Shown: in pieces, positions 1 to 28,995 of the stretch
How the letters are laid out: each line of letters begins with the position of its first letter
Position numbering within the stretch: position 1 is the stretch's first letter
NCBI GenBank assembly: GCA_964388005.1
Contig: CAYLZU010000004.1
Location: 1 to 28,995, forward strand
Length of the DNA stretch: 28,995 bases
Direction: 5' to 3'
DNA from: an uncultured Burkholderiaceae bacterium
GTDB lineage: Bacteria > Pseudomonadota > Gammaproteobacteria > Burkholderiales > Burkholderiaceae_F
The notes under the pieces: generated by a model
The model's database searches: none
The model's input: the letters and a program-made list of their open reading frames with translations, nothing else
Told to the model about the DNA's origin: nothing
Translations under genes and position numbers: made by a program

Positions 1-3
1 CTG

Positions 4-357
4 ATGCCGATCAAGGCAGAAAACAGGGGCCGCTACCCGGCCGACTGGAAACAGATGACCCGCGTCGCCGCGCTTGCCCTCGCCTGCATCCTCGCCTGGT
101 CTTCCACCGGCGCCGAGCCGATCAAGCGCTCCACGAGCGCGAAGCGGGCCTTCCAGAAGGCTGCTCCATGCCCCGCCACCGGCGAGCCGCGCGGAGCGTG
201 CCCTGGCTACGTGATCGACCACATCGTGCCGCTCTGCGCCGGCGGGCCCGACACGCCGGCCAACATGCAATGGCAGACGATCGCCGAGGCGCGGGAGAAA
301 GACAAGATCGAAGTCGCGAAATGCCGGGCGCTGCGCAAGGCTGGGCGCGATGGCTGA
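4..357 (+). CDS. HNH endonuclease family protein with signal-peptide-like segment; alternative start ATG 55
   Basis: YVIDHIVPLCAGGPDTPANMQWQT matches the DHxxP..GG.....N HNH core. From ATG 55 the sequence MTRVAALALACILAWSSTGA is hydrophobic like a signal peptide. Confidence 0.8.
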   Translation: MPIKAENRGRYPADWKQMTRVAALALACILAWSSTGAEPIKRSTSAKRAFQKAAPCPATGEPRGACPGYVIDHIVPLCAGGPDTPANMQWQTIAEAREKDKIEVAKCRALRKAGRDG

Positions 358-740
358 CACCAGCATCGAATGGACCGACGCCGTCTGGAACCCGGTGCGC
401 GGCTGCGCGATCGTCTCCAAGGGCTGCACCAACTGCTACGCGATGCGCCAGGCGCACCGCTTCAGCGGCAAGGGCGGCACCTACGAAGAGCGGCCCCGGT
501 GCGCGGCCATCGCACCCAGACTGGTTCCGCTCGCTACGCGACCAGTGTGCGGCAGCCAGTGTGCCGTACTTTTTCAAGCAGTGGGGCGCCTGGAAACCGG
601 CGGAGGGCACGGAAGCGATTGCGGCTGGCCGCCGGCACCGACGCCACTTGGGCGACGGCCTCGGCTATACGGTGCACGTCGGCAAGCGCGCCGCCGGCCG
701 CGAGCTCGACGGCCGCACGCACGACGAGTACCCGCGATGA
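350..740 (+). pseudogene. Phage Gp37Gp68 / DUF5131 family gene, internally deleted and frameshifted
   Basis: The N-terminus MADTSIEWTDAVWNPVRGCAIVSKGCTNCYA (350 to ~488) and the C-terminus SGPGARPSHPDWFRSLRDQCAAASVPYFFKQWG...GRELDGRTHDEYPR (489-740) are the two conserved ends of the family. They lie in different frames and total only ~130 aa. Confidence 0.85.
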
Positions 741-967
741 CCGACCTCCTCCTCCACGCCGTCGCCGGCGCCGCGATCAGCTACCTGGCGATCCAGGCGG
801 GCGCGCATCCGGCCCTCGCCATCCTGCTCGCCCTCGTCTGCGGCACCGTGCGCGAATCTCACCAGCGCGACTGGGAGAACCCGCTGCGCTTCACCGCGCA
901 CGCTTGGACCGAGGCGGCCGCCTGGGGAATCGGCGGCCTGCTCGCCGCCGCCATCGTTCTGTCGTGA
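737..967 (+). CDS. Small membrane protein (76 aa)
   Basis: ATGA overlap with the upstream stop at 738-740; hydrophobic stretches (LLHAVAGAAISYLAI, ALAILLALVCG, AAWGIGGLLAAAIVL). Confidence 0.7.
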   Translation: MTDLLLHAVAGAAISYLAIQAGAHPALAILLALVCGTVRESHQRDWENPLRFTAHAWTEAAAWGIGGLLAAAIVLS

Positions 968-1227
968 GCCTCACGCTCACCCCCGCCGAGCTCTTCGAAG
1001 TCACCGGCTACAAGCGCGGGCACCACCAGGCGGAGTATTTCCGTTCGCTCGGAATCCCGGTGCACCGCCGGCCAGACGGGTCGGTCAGCGTCTGCCGCCA
1101 GCACTACCTTGACCTCGTTCGCCGCGCGGAGGCACCATCCGCGTCTCGCCCAGCCCTTCGGTCCGATCATGAAAAGACGCCTGCCCAACCGGGTCTACGA
1201 AAACCACGGCTCCTACTGGTTCGTTGA
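964..1227 (+). CDS. Excisionase-like small DNA-binding protein (DUF4224-like)
   Basis: GTG 964 overlaps the upstream TGA. LTLTPAELFEVTGYKRGHHQAEYFRSLGIPVHRRPDGSVSV resembles DUF4224, and the gene sits directly before the integrase. Confidence 0.7.
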   Translation: MSLTLTPAELFEVTGYKRGHHQAEYFRSLGIPVHRRPDGSVSVCRQHYLDLVRRAEAPSASRPALRSDHEKTPAQPGLRKPRLLLVR

Positions 1228-2455
1228 CCTCGAGCGCCGCTGGCACAAGCTGTGCCGCATCGCCGAGGGCGAGGCTGCCATGTATGCCGCGCTCTCGGCG
1301 CGCGTCAATGCGCTGCCGCTCTCGCGCTTCGCCGCGGCGATCGCGAAGTTCAAGGCCGAGTACCTGAAGGGCCTGGCGGCCTCCACACAGAAGGAACACG
1401 AGCGCCTGCTCGATGTCGCCGGCGAAGAGTTCGCCGACTTCGGCGTGGCCGAGGTCCAGCCCACCGATGTCGCGCGCTCGGTGAAAAACCTCTACGCCGG
1501 CCGCCCCACCGCGGCGCGCAGCTACAAGGCCAGGCTCTCGACTTTCTTTCGCTGGTGCGTGGAGGAAGGCCTGCGCGCGGACAACCCCTGCCGCGAGATC
1601 TGGCTCAAGGCACCGCCGCGGCGCGATCGCTACATCACCGACGACGAGTTCAACCGGATCCGCGCCGCGCTCCTCACGGGCGAAGACGGCCTGCCCACGC
1701 CGGCGGGCGAAATGGCGCGCGCCTTCGTCGAGCTTTGCTACCTCACCGCCCAGCGGCCGACCGACATCCGGCGTCTGCTCTGGAGCCAGGTGCGCGCCGA
1801 CGGCATCGCCTTCCGGCCCACCAAGACCGCCGGCAGCTCGGGCGCGCGCGTGGTGGTGCCGCTCACGCCGGCGCTGCGCGACGTGCTCGAGCGCGCGCGC
1901 ACGTTCGCGCCGGCAAAGCGGAGATTCGGCTGCTGGAAAAACGGCCACGACCACGCCTTCGCCGAGATCTGCGCCTTCGGCGAAGATTCCCCCGTCCAGG
2001 TCGCCGGCACGACCCTCCACGAGCTCGGGCACGTGCTGGCGGGCATCGGCAAGGGTCACGGCAAGGGCTGGCTCGCCGCCTGCCGCAGGCTCGGCCTGAC
2101 CCACGTGCGCGCCGCCGGCACGAAATACTCGCTCGCCTGCTTCGCGCCCGACATCCGCGACGCGATCGCCGCGCTGCCCACGCCCACCGACGGCCGCCCG
2201 CAGCCCTTCGGCGGCTTCGGGCCGAACGGCATGCCCCTCCAGCTCAAGCTGCGCCCCTGCAGCGCCGGCATCGGCGTCAAGGGCGGCAAGTCGCGCGGCA
2301 CCGGCTCGGGCTCGCGGCTGCGCAAGTTCGCCTGCGACTGCGGTGTGATCGCCCGGGTGGCGCGCGATGAGTTCAATGCCACCTGCGGCGAGTGCAACAC
2401 GGCGTTTAAACGCGCCGAATCCAAGCCGCGCGCGGAGCTGAGGCTCGCGGCCTGA
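1169..2455 (+). CDS. int: Tyrosine integrase N-terminal/core region fused in frame to a SprT-like HExxH metalloprotease domain
   Basis: Integrase features: LSTFFRWCVEEGLRADNPC, RRDRYITDDEF, box I LCYLTAQRPTD (Arg at 1754) and PTKT. There is no HxxR/box II. After ~1920 come HELGH (2018-2032), GHGKGW and a CxC...CxxC tail. Confidence 0.85.
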   Translation: MKRRLPNRVYENHGSYWFVDLERRWHKLCRIAEGEAAMYAALSARVNALPLSRFAAAIAKFKAEYLKGLAASTQKEHERLLDVAGEEFADFGVAEVQPTDVARSVKNLYAGRPTAARSYKARLSTFFRWCVEEGLRADNPCREIWLKAPPRRDRYITDDEFNRIRAALLTGEDGLPTPAGEMARAFVELCYLTAQRPTDIRRLLWSQVRADGIAFRPTKTAGSSGARVVVPLTPALRDVLERARTFAPAKRRFGCWKNGHDHAFAEICAFGEDSPVQVAGTTLHELGHVLAGIGKGHGKGWLAACRRLGLTHVRAAGTKYSLACFAPDIRDAIAALPTPTDGRPQPFGGFGPNGMPLQLKLRPCSAGIGVKGGKSRGTGSGSRLRKFACDCGVIARVARDEFNATCGECNTAFKRAESKPRAELRLAA

Positions 2456-2463
2456 ATGTGGAG

Positions 2464-2477
2464 TGGCCGATCGGCCA
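2464..2477. promoter_or_regulatory. 14-bp perfect palindrome TGGCCGATCGGCCA, possible operator
   Basis: Perfect inverted repeat in the intergenic gap between the int fusion stop (2455) and the RBS of the next gene. Confidence 0.3.
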
Positions 2478-2513
2478 ACCGGCGCCTCGCGGATCAGGGG
2501 CCAGGAGATTGCA

Positions 2514-2891
2514 ATGGATGACGACAGCAACGACACGGCCGCCGCGATCGCGGAGACGCGCGCGCAGTTCGGCAGCGGCCCGAAGCCGATCGACAGCGTG
2601 GAGCGCCGCCTGCAGGCCTGGGCGGAGATCTGCCGCGGCGGAGCGATGAACCTGGTGAACGTGGACGGCGTGGGCTGGTCTTGGTCGACCGCGCCGCGGA
2701 TCCAGAAAAACGGATCCGCGATCGGGCGGGTCTACCGCCAGAGGAAGGGAGGGTTGTGCGTCGACGCGGGGAGCTACAAGATCGACGCGAAGGGGAAGGT
2801 GCTGCAGCTGCCGGCCGAACTGCGGGCCGTGCTGCCTGGTGGCGAGAGCGCCGAGATCTCGGCCGACGCCGAGACGGAGACCTCGCCATGA
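2514..2891 (+). CDS. Hypothetical protein (125 aa)
   Basis: AGGAG at 2503-2507 before ATG 2514; ATGA overlap with the next gene; no family recognised. Confidence 0.65.
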   Translation: MDDDSNDTAAAIAETRAQFGSGPKPIDSVERRLQAWAEICRGGAMNLVNVDGVGWSWSTAPRIQKNGSAIGRVYRQRKGGLCVDAGSYKIDAKGKVLQLPAELRAVLPGGESAEISADAETETSP

Positions 2892-3160
2892 CCGCGACTG
2901 CTAAACTGCGCGACGTGGCGAACCACCCGAACCGCAACAAGCACGCCGGCGCGGCCGCCAGCTCGCCATCGCCCGCCCAGGTGCGCTCGGCGCGCGAGGC
3001 CGCGGGGCTCACGCAGAGCGAGGCCGCGGCGAAGATCCACGGCACGCTGCGCGCCTGGCAGAACTACGAGGCCGACGAGGGCACGCCGGAATACCGGCGC
3101 ATGCACCCGGGCCTCTTTGAGCTCTTCCTGATCAAGACCGGCCAGCCGCGGCCGCGGTAG
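2888..3160 (+). CDS. XRE/Cro-type helix-turn-helix regulator (alternative start GTG 2915)
   Basis: VRSAREAAGLTQSEAAAKIHGTLRAWQNYE is a typical XRE HTH. Confidence 0.85.
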   Translation: MTATAKLRDVANHPNRNKHAGAAASSPSPAQVRSAREAAGLTQSEAAAKIHGTLRAWQNYEADEGTPEYRRMHPGLFELFLIKTGQPRPR

Positions 3161-3190
3161 AAAAGCAAAGCCCCGCGCGAGGCGGGGCTT
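3161..3190 (-). terminator. Intrinsic terminator of the late operon (possibly bidirectional)
   Basis: Stem AAGCCCCGC/GCGGGGCTT (3168-3190). The A-rich flank at 3161-3170 reads as a U-rich tail on minus, and the site lies between convergent genes. Confidence 0.75.
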
Positions 3191-3244
3191 CGGGTGAGGG
3201 CGGACTTTAGACGAGGAGAATTCTGCGCCCGGCGGGCGCAGAGG

Positions 3245-3880
3245 TCAAGGGGATGGACGGCCCGAGCGCTCGGCCTTCAGCGTGGCGCGGCAGAGCCGGA
3301 GCTTGCCGAGGGCGGCGTCGGCGCGGCCGGCTTCGGTGAGGAGGAAGTCGCTGGCGCGGCCTGAAAGAACGCCCGCAGCCGCTCGAGGAAGCTCTCCTCC
3401 CCCGTCTCGTCCAGCACTTCCGGCGGGATCGGCGGCAGCGCGGCCGCCTCCACGCTCACCACTGCCGGGGCACCCTGCCCCGGCTTCTGCGGCGGGGTCG
3501 CGCAGGAGCAAAGAACCATCGTGCAGAGCAGCGCGCAGGATCTCCAGGTTGCGGTGAGCATCGTTTTTCTCCTTGATGTGGGTGGCCACGGCGCTGGACA
3601 CGGCATGCGCGCGGCGCGCCTCTTCCTTGCGCGCGGCCGCCTCGAGCTCGCGGATGCGCGCGGTGGCCTGGATGAGCTTCTCGTTGTCGCGCGCCTCGTA
3701 CTCCGCGCGCGCCTTGTGCTCGCCGGCGGCGAAGATCGCGGCGTCGCGCGCCTCGATCCACTCGCCGACGTAGTTGACGAGCTTGTAGATCGCCCCCACG
3801 AGGAAGGCGGCGGCGAGCAGCACGCCGATGATCTGGAGCCAGCCGAAGCCGCGCTGCCGGCACTCGCGCAGCGGCGTCAC
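3245..3880 (-). CDS. Rz: Rz-like inner-membrane spanin
   Basis: GTG 3880 overlaps the upstream TGA. It has an N-terminal TM (WLQIIGVLLAAAFLVGAIY), a coiled-coil-like periplasmic region and a C-terminus ASDFLLTEAGRADAALGKLRLCRA, and lies downstream of the endolysin. Confidence 0.85.
   Translation of the reverse strand: MTPLRECRQRGFGWLQIIGVLLAAAFLVGAIYKLVNYVGEWIEARDAAIFAAGEHKARAEYEARDNEKLIQATARIRELEAAARKEEARRAHAVSSAVATHIKEKNDAHRNLEILRAALHDGSLLLRDPAAEAGAGCPGSGERGGGRAAADPAGSAGRDGGGELPRAAAGVLSGRASDFLLTEAGRADAALGKLRLCRATLKAERSGRPSP
3277..3561 (-). CDS. Rz1: Rz1-like outer-membrane lipoprotein spanin nested in Rz
   Basis: AAGGAG RBS before ATG 3561; lipobox-like LCSC followed by a Pro-rich mature region; entirely inside Rz in another frame. 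Confidence 0.8.
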   Translation of the reverse strand: MLTATWRSCALLCTMVLCSCATPPQKPGQGAPAVVSVEAAALPPIPPEVLDETGEESFLERLRAFFQAAPATSSSPKPAAPTPPSASSGSAAPR

Positions 3881-12952: not shown

Positions 12953-13816
12953 TTACTGCGTGGTCTGCTTGCTTCCCATTCCGCGCCGCGTCTTCCAGGA
13001 ACCGGACCGCATTCGCGCCGACCACTCCGGTCGCTTGATGCCGCGAAGGGATGCTCCAATAGCTTCGCGATGCGCAGCCGTTAGAGTTCTGCCCTTAAGA
13101 GTTTGCGCAATTCGATCCTTCTTCCATTGTGGAACCTCACGGCCCCTCTGGGACGCGCTAATCTTAGCTACGATTTCCGCTCGCCTTTCGGTCGACAGAG
13201 ATTTCCACCACGCGCGGCGCTTCACACCTACGGACGGACGTTTTTGTCCGAGCTGTGACAAGCCAATGCGTTCGCGCTGCGCGGCCCCCAGTACGCGGCC
13301 GGTCATTGCCTTACTGCGAGCGGAGCGCTGCTCCATAGTGACGTTGGCGGTCCCGTTCGCCCGCCGTGTAGCCCACGTCTTAGCAATTGATTCAGGCGAC
13401 ATCTTTCGTCCCCGCAACGCTGCCGCCACCTTCGCACGATGTTCTGGCGTCAACTTGCGCCCACGAGGAGCGCCCATCCGGGCGCGCACCTCTGGAGCAA
13501 ATCGAACTCCAAACTGACTTCCCGCGCGAGGCGCAATGTTGTAGCCAGCACGGTCGTCAAGCGCAGCCCCGGTCAGGTCGAGCCAGTGTTGCTCGCGAGC
13601 TATTAGATCGGCTGCGTCATCCACGCGCTCGACGACTTCAAAAACAAACGCCCCTGCGCCGTATTTGTTCCATGCGTTCTGCAGTTTCGGATTTCGATGA
13701 GTCCCGCGCGTCAAATCACGCTTGTGACCTCCCCAACGATCCGCGATGTCTACTGCGCTTCCAACGTACACCCTGCCGCTCGCCCTGTGCCGGATGATGT
13801 AGATACCGGATTTCAT
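12953..13816 (-). CDS. Free-standing GIY-YIG homing endonuclease with NUMOD3-like repeats
   Basis: SGIYIIRHRASGRVYVGSAVDIADRW..H...L matches the GIY-YIG motif. The C-terminal repeats (HRAKVAAALRGRK, KIAQTLKGR, HREAIGASLRG) are NUMOD3-like, and the gene is visibly more AT-rich than its flanks. Confidence 0.92.
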   Translation of the reverse strand: MKSGIYIIRHRASGRVYVGSAVDIADRWGGHKRDLTRGTHRNPKLQNAWNKYGAGAFVFEVVERVDDAADLIAREQHWLDLTGAALDDRAGYNIAPRAGSQFGVRFAPEVRARMGAPRGRKLTPEHRAKVAAALRGRKMSPESIAKTWATRRANGTANVTMEQRSARSKAMTGRVLGAAQRERIGLSQLGQKRPSVGVKRRAWWKSLSTERRAEIVAKISASQRGREVPQWKKDRIAQTLKGRTLTAAHREAIGASLRGIKRPEWSARMRSGSWKTRRGMGSKQTTQ

Positions 13817-13824
13817 AGCACAGG

Positions 13825-13852
13825 ATTCTACTGCGGCGGCACGCATCGTCTA
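13825..13852 (-). promoter_or_regulatory. Putative sigma70-like promoter for the endonuclease gene
   Basis: On minus: TAGACG (13852-13847), a 16-nt spacer and TAGAAT (13830-13825), then 8 nt to ATG 13816 with no Shine-Dalgarno. Confidence 0.45.
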
Positions 13853-21052: not shown

Positions 21053-22018
21053 TTAAAGATCGAACAGAAGGTCACGCTCGTCCTGCAACTGCCGCGCCGA
21101 GGGGCTCTGCTTCACCCCTGGCTCGCCGAACTCTTCGCCGCTGGCGATCGACGCCACCGCGGCCACCGCGCGCGCTTTCAGCTCGGCCTGGCCGAATGCC
21201 TCCGCGCTCTGAATGCCGAGGGCGCCAACCGCCTGCTGCGCGGGCCGCCTGCGGATGGGCGGCGCATACCACATGCTGCCGCCGAGCACGGCAGGCACGA
21301 CAACCTCGCCGCCCAGCGCGGTGGCGCTGCCGAAACTCTCCGCGCTGGCGATCCCGCCCGCATCGCCGATCGTCTGCGGACCCAGGACGACGGCCGCGCC
21401 GATCGCCTCCGCGCTGGCGATGTTGCCGGCCGCAAGGATCGTGAAGTTCGCCTGCCCGCCGCCGAAGGCCTCGGCCGTGCCGATCGCCCCGGCCGCGCCG
21501 ATGGTGAAGTTCAGCTTGCCTGCGCCGAAGGCCTCGGCCCCGCCGATCGCACCCAGGGCGAGCAGCGTGAAGTTCAGCTTGCCGCTGCCGAACGCCTCGG
21601 CGCTACTCACCGCGCCGGCAGCGAGCGTGAAATTCGCCTGCGCCGTGCCGAACGCTTCGGCGCCGGCGATGTCGCCCGCGCCGCTGATCGTCTGCCCGCC
21701 GCCCGAGGTTGCGACCGTGGCCGCGCCGATCGCCTCCGCGCTGGCGATGTTGCCGGCCGCAAGGATCGTGAAGTTCGCCTGCCCGCCGCCGAAGGCCTCG
21801 GCCGTGCCGATCGCCCCGGCCGCGCCGATGGTGAAGTTCAGCTTGCCTGCGCCGAAGGCCTCGGCCCCGCCGATCGCACCCAGGGCGAGCAGCGTGAAGT
21901 TCGCCTGCGCCGCGCCGAAGGCTTCGGCCCCGGCGATGCCGCCAGCGCCGGAGATCGTTTGCCCGCCAGCACCGCCGGCCGGGACATGCCCGAGAAACAG
22001 GCGCGAGCGCGCCATCAT
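21053..22018 (-). CDS. Gly/Ala-rich repeat protein with ~12 copies of G-I-x-[SGT]-A-E-A-F-G (about 21-aa period)
   Basis: Repeats are visible in the translation; coupled to both neighbours. Confidence 0.8.
   Translation of the reverse strand: MMARSRLFLGHVPAGGAGGQTISGAGGIAGAEAFGAAQANFTLLALGAIGGAEAFGAGKLNFTIGAAGAIGTAEAFGGGQANFTILAAGNIASAEAIGAATVATSGGGQTISGAGDIAGAEAFGTAQANFTLAAGAVSSAEAFGSGKLNFTLLALGAIGGAEAFGAGKLNFTIGAAGAIGTAEAFGGGQANFTILAAGNIASAEAIGAAVVLGPQTIGDAGGIASAESFGSATALGGEVVVPAVLGGSMWYAPPIRRRPAQQAVGALGIQSAEAFGQAELKARAVAAVASIASGEEFGEPGVKQSPSARQLQDERDLLFDL
21392..21902. repeat. 184-bp perfect direct repeat (21392-21575 and 21719-21902)
   Basis: The two copies read identically by eye; the 327-bp offset keeps the frame. 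Confidence 0.9.
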
Positions 22019-28921: not shown

Positions 28922-28995
28922 GAATCCACCCCACCCCTATCACCTACCCCCCCCCTGTCGGATTTCGCGGTAATGCGCGCGGATAGGGGCGCTCG

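Follow-up and report, generated by a model that had tools for sequence, protein, structure and literature searches.

Does an open reading frame (ORF) that begins as a phage integrase and ends as a metalloprotease encode a new DNA-targeted enzyme, or is it the remains of two broken genes? The question is raised by a 28,995-nucleotide (nt) contig from an uncultured Burkholderiaceae bacterium (CAYLZU010000004.1, assembly GCA_964388005.1; the whole stretch analysed is hereafter the window), the plus strand of which carries such a frame at 1169-2455. The initial annotation had read it as an integrase whose catalytic C-terminus was replaced in frame by a SprT-like zinc protease, and had proposed either a deletion or a stable fusion protein. 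Our analysis favours the former: the ORF is very probably the in-frame scar of one illegitimate-recombination event, in the simplest version a deletion, across the phage attachment site (attP) region of a temperate siphovirus, and thus an instance of gene decay. Its parts are as follows.

1169..2455, plus strand: the chimeric ORF, 428 codons, integrase codons 1-252 joined to SprT-like codons 53 to the end; the JGI gene caller made the identical call.
1169..1924, plus strand: the integrase-derived part, residues 1-252, with the arm-binding sheet, the core-binding domain and the first half of the catalytic domain (from Pfam, PHROG, an alignment with 32 complete integrases and an AlphaFold2 (AF2) model).
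1922..1924, plus strand: the recombination joint, codon R252 (AGA), where the protein reads ...ERARTFAPAKRR and then FGCWKNGHDH...
1925..2455, plus strand: the SprT-like-derived part, residues 253-428, without the family's first 52 residues (from the phrog_6361 match and the family alignment).

The frame proved to be stop-free, as first read, and kept the native int start; after 252 residues of a tyrosine integrase it continues with the 176 C-terminal residues of a SprT-like HExxH/zinc-ribbon protein. Hereafter, L-numbers denote loci of relatives and P-numbers homologous proteins. The split was clean at the protein level, with integrases matching residues 3-250 and SprT-like proteins residues 253-428. 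In nucleotide alignments, the integrase gene of L026, the closest one at 82% nt identity, covered window positions 965-1921, and the SprT-like genes of L001, L003, and L004 (71-84%) all started aligning at exactly 1925. Because integrase homology ends at 1921 and SprT-like homology starts at 1925, the joint is placed at codon R252, inside the range of 1905-1926 proposed beforehand. Homology from both sides stopped within 3 nt, and no shared stretch or long k-mer was evident at the break among the relatives. Since both halves have homologues at E < 1e-90, the feature lies far beyond chance. In the AF2 model of the fusion the two halves had no defined mutual orientation (predicted template modelling score, pTM, 0.53). 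Apparent joint-crossing tblastn matches in L015-L017, L031, and L039 (query residues 171-423) were rejected as gapped artefacts: past a gap of 22 residues, the integrase hairpin region was paired with the SprT-like N-terminus at ~25% identity.

The data are metagenomic, and an assembly chimera of an integrase contig and a SprT-like contig was one possibility that had been raised. However, the exact 428-residue protein was present on three contigs from two pipelines, specifically the window-sized one, a 21.6-kb contig of JGI 3300037501, and a 2.8-kb contig of Logan SRR12686701 in which the joint lies mid-contig, and the relatives had no long shared k-mer at the joint. The identical joint in three assemblies argues strongly that it was not made by an assembler, an explanation to which we give virtually no chance. 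Over their full extent, the JGI and Logan contigs did not differ from the window (100% identity), so that they represent a single clone with no variation from which selection could be read.

The fusion is confined to one clonal lineage. Among 66 homologues drawn from 5.8 billion proteins, none covered both halves; they were complete integrases (~350 residues, range 313-400) or separate SprT-like proteins (mostly ~235-290 residues, a few of up to 463 residues with other extensions). The fusion was likewise not found in genome contigs (one genome per species) or in IMG/VR viral contigs using a degenerate joint pattern and a protein search, nor was it among the 41 loci recovered from JGI metagenome contigs. 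When 1.84 billion cluster representatives were scanned exhaustively with HMMER for the C-terminal part, 269 hits were obtained, and an N-terminal extension of ~250 residues was present in none of the complete ones, in which the match began 45-100 residues into the protein (up to ~180 in a few). The search for the full-length fusion in independent genomes that the initial annotation had suggested therefore yielded no second instance, and the recurrence in independent, diverged lineages that marks an established fusion family was not observed.

In the integrase half, residues 9-247 matched PHROG 1 (E 1e-31), the Pfam family Phage_int_M (PF22022) matched residues 54-143 at 27.6 bits (cutoff 27), and Phage_integrase (PF00589) matched residues 155-242 at 25 bits, under its cutoff of 27.1, so that no more than profile positions 2-81 of 172 were covered. 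The AF2 model of the fusion had a predicted local distance difference test score (pLDDT) above 90 for most of residues 1-244, including the sheet at 9-30 and the helices that follow. The alignment with the 32 complete integrases placed Arg-I (R196 in AQRPTD, nt 1754-1756) and the beta-hairpin Lys (K219 in PTKTAGSSG, nt 1823-1825) in invariant columns. The relatives' KDLRAK (Arg-II), AAAHSS (His), and TTEGY (Tyr nucleophile) motifs lie past the joint in 32 of 32 cases and are missing here, foreign sequence standing in the chimeric ORF where complete relatives run on for ~100 residues. Thus, of the features of an active tyrosine recombinase, the arm- and core-binding domains, Arg-I, and the Lys are present, and Arg-II, the second His/Trp, and the Tyr nucleophile are absent, in line with the first reading, which had recognised box I and the Lys loop and not HxxR, H/W, or the nucleophile. 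Because Arg-II, the His, and the Tyr nucleophile have been removed, the predicted product cannot recombine DNA, and the sequence indicates that this module no longer allows the phage to integrate or excise.

The SprT-like half carries the following elements, all on the plus strand, among which HELGH, GHGKGW, CDC, and CGEC occur in the order first described.

2018-2032, plus strand: HELGH, residues 284-288, invariant in the family alignment.
2054-2071, plus strand: GHGKGW with the third His, H297, residues 296-301, invariant in the family alignment.
2282-2323, plus strand: a Gly/Ser/Arg-rich loop of the SprT-like part.
2333-2395, plus strand: the CxC...CxxC zinc ribbon, CDC at residues 389-391 and CGEC at residues 406-409.

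Residues 272-417 matched phrog_6361 at positions 77-203 of 203 (E 9e-13), and this part was 81-91% identical to the C-terminal parts of complete SprT-like genes. In a family alignment of 33 sequences (~237 residues), the 52 residues missing from the chimera hold seven conserved positions, of which Y40, G41, G43, and G49 are invariant and E11, K37, and R48 nearly so. An AF2 model of the intact homologue P0021 (pLDDT 84.6) placed helices at 10-22 and 27-35 and strands at 37-41 and 49-53 in the lost segment, ahead of a third strand (66-71) and the HExxH helix (78-94). The AF2 model of the fusion gave an integrase half modelled with confidence to residue 244, followed by coil at residues 245-274 (pLDDT 51-61), with the third strand no longer predicted. 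The chimera therefore lacks a complete zincin core, in which N-terminal helices and a three-stranded sheet precede the HExxH helix. As evidence of instability, predicted structures are weak, yet they agree with the conservation data, and the protease moiety is probably misfolded or inactive.

The assignment of this half to SprT-like proteins held in part. The HExxH, GHG, and ribbon motifs were present, and PF10263 matched seven of the 33 family members at E <= 0.01, although P0065 alone exceeded the gathering score (30 bits) and the chimeric protein reached just 12 bits (E 0.19, against a cutoff of 25.6) in a weak match around HELGH. The SprT zinc-ribbon model was matched by one of the 33. When the model of the intact homologue was compared with the PDB using Foldseek, the best match was the SPRTN protease domain (6mdx_A), at a non-significant E of 0.37 and template modelling (TM) scores of 0.27/0.34. 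PDB sequence searches with the fusion and with the family profile returned nothing significant, NCBIfam and PADLOC gave no match for the SprT-like protein, and no Peptidase_M78/ImmA Pfam domain was detected in the fusion or in any of the 33 family members. We consider the label moderately supported by these comparisons. A uL2-like PDB match to the Gly/Ser/Arg loop was too weak (E 0.84) and was set aside. No close relative was present among GenBank phages; MW202512.1 has no integrase, and its 'sprT-like family protein', encoded behind a RadC-like gene, is 48% identical. Our literature search found nothing on this SprT-like family or on integrase-SprT fusions. Some family members have C-terminal extensions, as in P0029 (354 residues) and P0049 (463 residues), and in the latter the SprT-like domain is fused to an AlkB-like 2OG-Fe(II) oxygenase domain, a hint of a family role connected with DNA or nucleic acids.

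How two such genes came to be joined is best approached through the arrangement of their relatives, in comparison with the genes that flank the ORF in the window.

964..1227, plus strand: a DUF4224 gene (Pfam PF13986, E 6e-12), the usual upstream partner of this integrase family, overlapping the int start by 59 nt.
2514..2891, plus strand: orf125, the second gene of a conserved cassette, with homologues 3' of the SprT-like gene in L001, L004, L014, L015, and L034.
2888..3160, plus strand: an XRE/MqsA-like helix-turn-helix (HTH) gene (HTH_31, E 8e-5; weak MqsA-family matches), the last gene of the cassette and, as originally noted, two genes downstream.

The DUF4224/int overlap recurred with the identical 59 nt in L002, and orf125 had no match in Pfam, NCBIfam, or PADLOC. 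In ~20 of the 21 loci with enough sequence, the SprT-like gene was followed by the XRE/MqsA-like HTH gene, in many cases with an intervening orf125 homologue. The cassette stands directly beyond an integration module or a tRNA-like attachment (att) piece. Specifically, in L004, L017, and L039 a large serine recombinase is followed after 215-320 nt by the SprT-like and XRE genes, with gp37/68 seen upstream in L004. L014 encodes an excisionase-like gene, a tyrosine integrase of another family, tRNA-like sequences, a complete SprT-like gene, orf125, and XRE, and its SprT-like protein is the second closest to that of the window (89%). In L056, a tRNA-like piece is repeated upstream of the SprT-like gene, and in L044 the 3' half of a tRNA-Lys (nt 34-85, minus strand) lies ~210 nt upstream of it (208 nt from the ORF). 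The window's own integrase family is represented by L049, where DUF4224 and int are followed by a tRNA-Ala 82 nt further on. Many loci also carry the palindrome TATAC-N-CA-W-TG-N-GTATA ~170-190 nt upstream of the SprT-like start, and in L014 and L056 a further copy is flanked by the TTGACA and TATTAT of a promoter.

Beside attP in more than 20 loci with different recombinases, the cassette looks like an autoregulated prophage-end operon, and from these loci we infer an expected order of DUF4224, int, attP, operator/promoter, SprT-like, orf125, and XRE. Of this series, the window is missing the whole stretch between int codon 253 and SprT-like codon 52, both included. None of the relatives' operator-type palindromes occurs anywhere in the window, which also contains no tRNA or tRNA-like piece as an att remnant and no excess of T-arm-like motifs, and no sigma-70-like promoter was found on the plus strand of positions 1-3400. 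The cassette occupies 2110-3692 in L004, 3200-5078 in L014, 1080-1720 in L056, and 1925-3160 in the window.

In its simplest version, the event would have been an intragenomic deletion of roughly 0.7-1.4 kb, comprising roughly 300 nt of the int end, 250-900 nt between the genes, and 156 nt of the SprT-like start. Codon 252 of a DUF4224-associated tyrosine integrase would thereby have been joined to codon 53 of the SprT-like gene, which would normally be the first gene of the SprT-like/orf125/XRE cassette across attP from int. Lost with this interval would have been the end of int (~100 codons, including those for Arg-II, the His, and the Tyr nucleophile), the att sequence, the promoter and palindromic operator belonging to the cassette, and SprT-like codons 1-52, which are predicted to form two helices and two of the three strands flanking the HExxH helix. 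As a consequence, orf125 and the XRE gene would now be transcribed only by read-through from the int operon. Because int and the cassette flank attP on opposite sides, such a deletion would be expected in circular or concatemeric phage DNA or in a tandem lysogen, not in a single integrated prophage. That the joint is in frame is a one-in-three accident.

An exchange between phages could have produced the same joint, if illegitimate recombination replaced a serine-recombinase module by the DUF4224 and tyrosine-integrase module, and the functional verdict would be unchanged. The slot between gp37/68 and the SprT-like gene does vary among the relatives (a serine recombinase in L004, L017, and L039, another tyrosine family in L014), which points to frequent exchange, but the relatives' swaps end at gene boundaries and not inside two ORFs, no parent genomes were found, and an internal deletion in gp37/68 of the window points to intragenomic deletions. 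We give such a module swap a modest chance. The gp37/68 deletion lies 1.4 kb upstream of the joint.

350..740, plus strand: a gp37/gp68 (DUF5131) pseudogene, its N-terminal ~45 codons (~353-480) and C-terminal ~75 codons (486-734) in different frames.

When the 297-residue homologue from L016 was compared with the window using tblastn, the two pieces fell in frames +2 and +3, so that ~175 codons of the intact homologue are missing and a frameshift is present; JGI called only 561-740 as DUF5131. Because gp37/68 carries this second deletion scar, the accessory block is eroding while the late genes look intact. Separate complete genes in the relatives, their synteny, the clonal uniqueness of the fusion, and the second scar together bear out the deletion of the int 3' end and the SprT-like start, leaving a non-integrating phage, that was the first of the two original proposals.

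Several observations nevertheless weigh against gene decay through a deletion across attP. All 43 conserved family positions after the joint are kept. The ratio of non-synonymous to synonymous substitution rates (dN/dS) of the SprT-like part against relatives was 0.19-0.37, no higher than in pairs of intact genes; this absence of a relaxed-constraint signal fits a recent event and is also compatible with continued selection, and is thus uninformative on function. Moreover, the SprT-like ORF of L044 (region 1-811) is an independent 5' truncation, without 63 codons, still open, and with a new N-terminus (MPENPSRAP...), which might mean that an N-terminally shortened protein is tolerated or used. 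Its C-terminal part is the closest of all to that of the window (91%), and an intact sister, L032, comes from the same metagenome. As this nearest intact relative is separated from L044 by a synonymous divergence (dS) of 0.19, the truncations in the window and L044 may both simply be young. No close relative was found in which the same integrase family stands beside a SprT-like gene, and the ancestral int-attP-SprT order is drawn from relatives with other recombinases. Finally, the early region of the phage lies outside the window, and a second integration system may exist.

The L044 copy, open, truncated, 91% identical, and beside an att-type tRNA fragment, is also an argument that the ORF, while a scar by origin, encodes a C-terminal SprT-like module that works without its first 52-63 residues, the joint having mainly re-wired its expression to the int operon. 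The lack of excess non-synonymous change and the retention of conserved positions are in keeping with this; however, the missing N-terminal segment includes seven conserved positions, the modelled fusion no longer forms the sheet, L032 is so close to L044 that both truncations may be young, and the short representatives in the HMMER scan may be contig-end fragments. We see a slim chance for this explanation. If the module were autonomous, open 5'-truncated copies beside att sites in two independent lineages, those of the window and L044, would be explained. That the chimera is functional, with the integrase DNA-binding domains delivering a still-active HExxH/zinc-ribbon module to targets bound to DNA, or that the C-terminal 175 residues of the SprT-like family form an autonomous active module, we judge very unlikely.

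The second original proposal, a stable fusion that targets a protease to att/arm DNA, fared poorly. Its arm- and core-binding domains would tether the HExxH/zinc-ribbon module to DNA and direct it at, for example, the XRE protein or DNA-bound proteins. Such a neo-fusion accords with a frame that is open from the native int start, with 244 confidently modelled N-terminal residues, with all metal ligands and the 43 conserved positions of the C-terminal part being kept, and with the tight SprT-like/XRE synteny of ~20 loci, and architectures that combine DNA binding with a zincin occur naturally in SPRTN (PMC5127644) and ArdC-like proteins (mentioned in PMC7824862). It is at odds with the restriction of the fusion to one clonal lineage among billions of proteins, with relatives that have a complete int and a separate SprT-like gene (the pattern under which, according to the initial annotation, the functional-fusion idea would fall), and with the loss of the conserved N-terminal protease sub-domain, including two of the three sheet strands. 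Furthermore, the att DNA to be bound appears to have been deleted, and the neighbouring gp37/68 is also decaying. A functional fusion of this kind is, in our view, highly improbable.

The window as a whole, at 70% G+C, is phage sequence, in which a short block of plus-strand genes (4-3160) converges with ~25.7 kb of minus-strand lysis and late genes.

3166..3242, no strand assigned: two GC-rich hairpins, between the convergent plus-strand block and the minus-strand lysis and late genes.

The late gene set looks complete, with small and large terminase, portal, prohead protease, major capsid, adaptor, neck, tape measure, and tail proteins, and includes an inserted GIY-YIG homing endonuclease. 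The gene for the latter (12953-13846, minus strand) lies between tape-measure and tail genes in a stretch with a GC content of 61-64% as against ~70%, and is probably a mobile insertion. A direct repeat of 155 nt (95% identical; 21449-21601 and 21776-21928) lies in and just downstream of a 'minor tail protein' gene (21053-22018, minus strand) that is itself repeat-containing, and coincides with a contig break in sample 3300037501. At the other end of the window, residues 26-112 of the ORF at 4-357 matched a 92-residue phage 'hnhc' HNH protein (MW202512.1), while its first 17 residues (MPIKAENRGRYPADWKQ), 5' of a signal-peptide-like stretch, fall outside the 'hnhc' family and may be a remnant of another gene. 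Those JGI contigs that extend to an end of the window share its terminal nucleotide, which is nt 1 for the 21.6-kb contig of 3300037501 and nt 28995 for contigs from both 3300037501 and 3300043177, and the Logan SRR12686701 contigs end at 26 and 28985. The right end lies 74 nt upstream of terS, and no terminal repeat was found at the window ends. The ends may be physical (cos) ends, in which case the genome would span just 29 kb and lack replication and immunity genes, or they may reflect a shared branch of the assembly graph at which variants of the early region diverge.

Among known systems, the closest counterparts of the two halves are separate proteins. Residues 1-252 of the chimera are 56-82% identical to arm-binding phage tyrosine integrases (P0016, P0001, and L005; PF22022 plus PF00589, after DUF4224 and beside a tRNA), with which it shares the upstream DUF4224, the 59-nt overlap, Arg-I, and the hairpin Lys; unlike them, its last ~100 residues are foreign and no att or tRNA-like sequence follows. 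With SprT-like zincins (PF10263; the SPRTN/Wss1 group) it shares HExxH, the GHG third His, and the CxC...CxxC ribbon, but it is without the first 52 residues, and the phrog_6361 family is itself distant from characterised SprT/SPRTN (Foldseek E 0.37). As a whole, the locus resembles integration-defective deletion derivatives of temperate phages, such as the lambda b2-type attP deletions and mycobacteriophage D29, which derives from an L5-like phage. As in these, the proposed deletion would fall in a non-essential region around attP with late genes that look intact, whereas in the window the end points lie inside two genes, in frame, and leave a long chimeric ORF. The ORF would thus mark a phage lineage as integration-defective through this module and, being of ordinary origin, is of little importance as a fusion protein; it illustrates that an in-frame attP deletion can yield a long, tidy chimeric ORF that annotation pipelines call a gene.

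The cassette, with its palindromic operator, adjoins attP in many soil and freshwater phages with different integrases, and invites a comparison with the pairs of an ImmA/IrrE (COG2856) metalloprotease and an XRE repressor, such as IrrE-DdrO (PMC6868357). Like these, it holds an HExxH gene in tight synteny with an XRE-type HTH gene, with a palindromic operator upstream in the relatives; unlike these, it has no Peptidase_M78/ImmA match, and the gene order differs, with orf125 intervening. Nothing supports the analogies to DNA-tethered proteases (SPRTN, PMC5127644; ArdC-like, PMC7824862) and to IrrE-DdrO for the chimera, but they may offer a fair lead for the intact SprT-like/orf125/MqsA-like XRE cassette, which is a more promising target for functional study than the scar.

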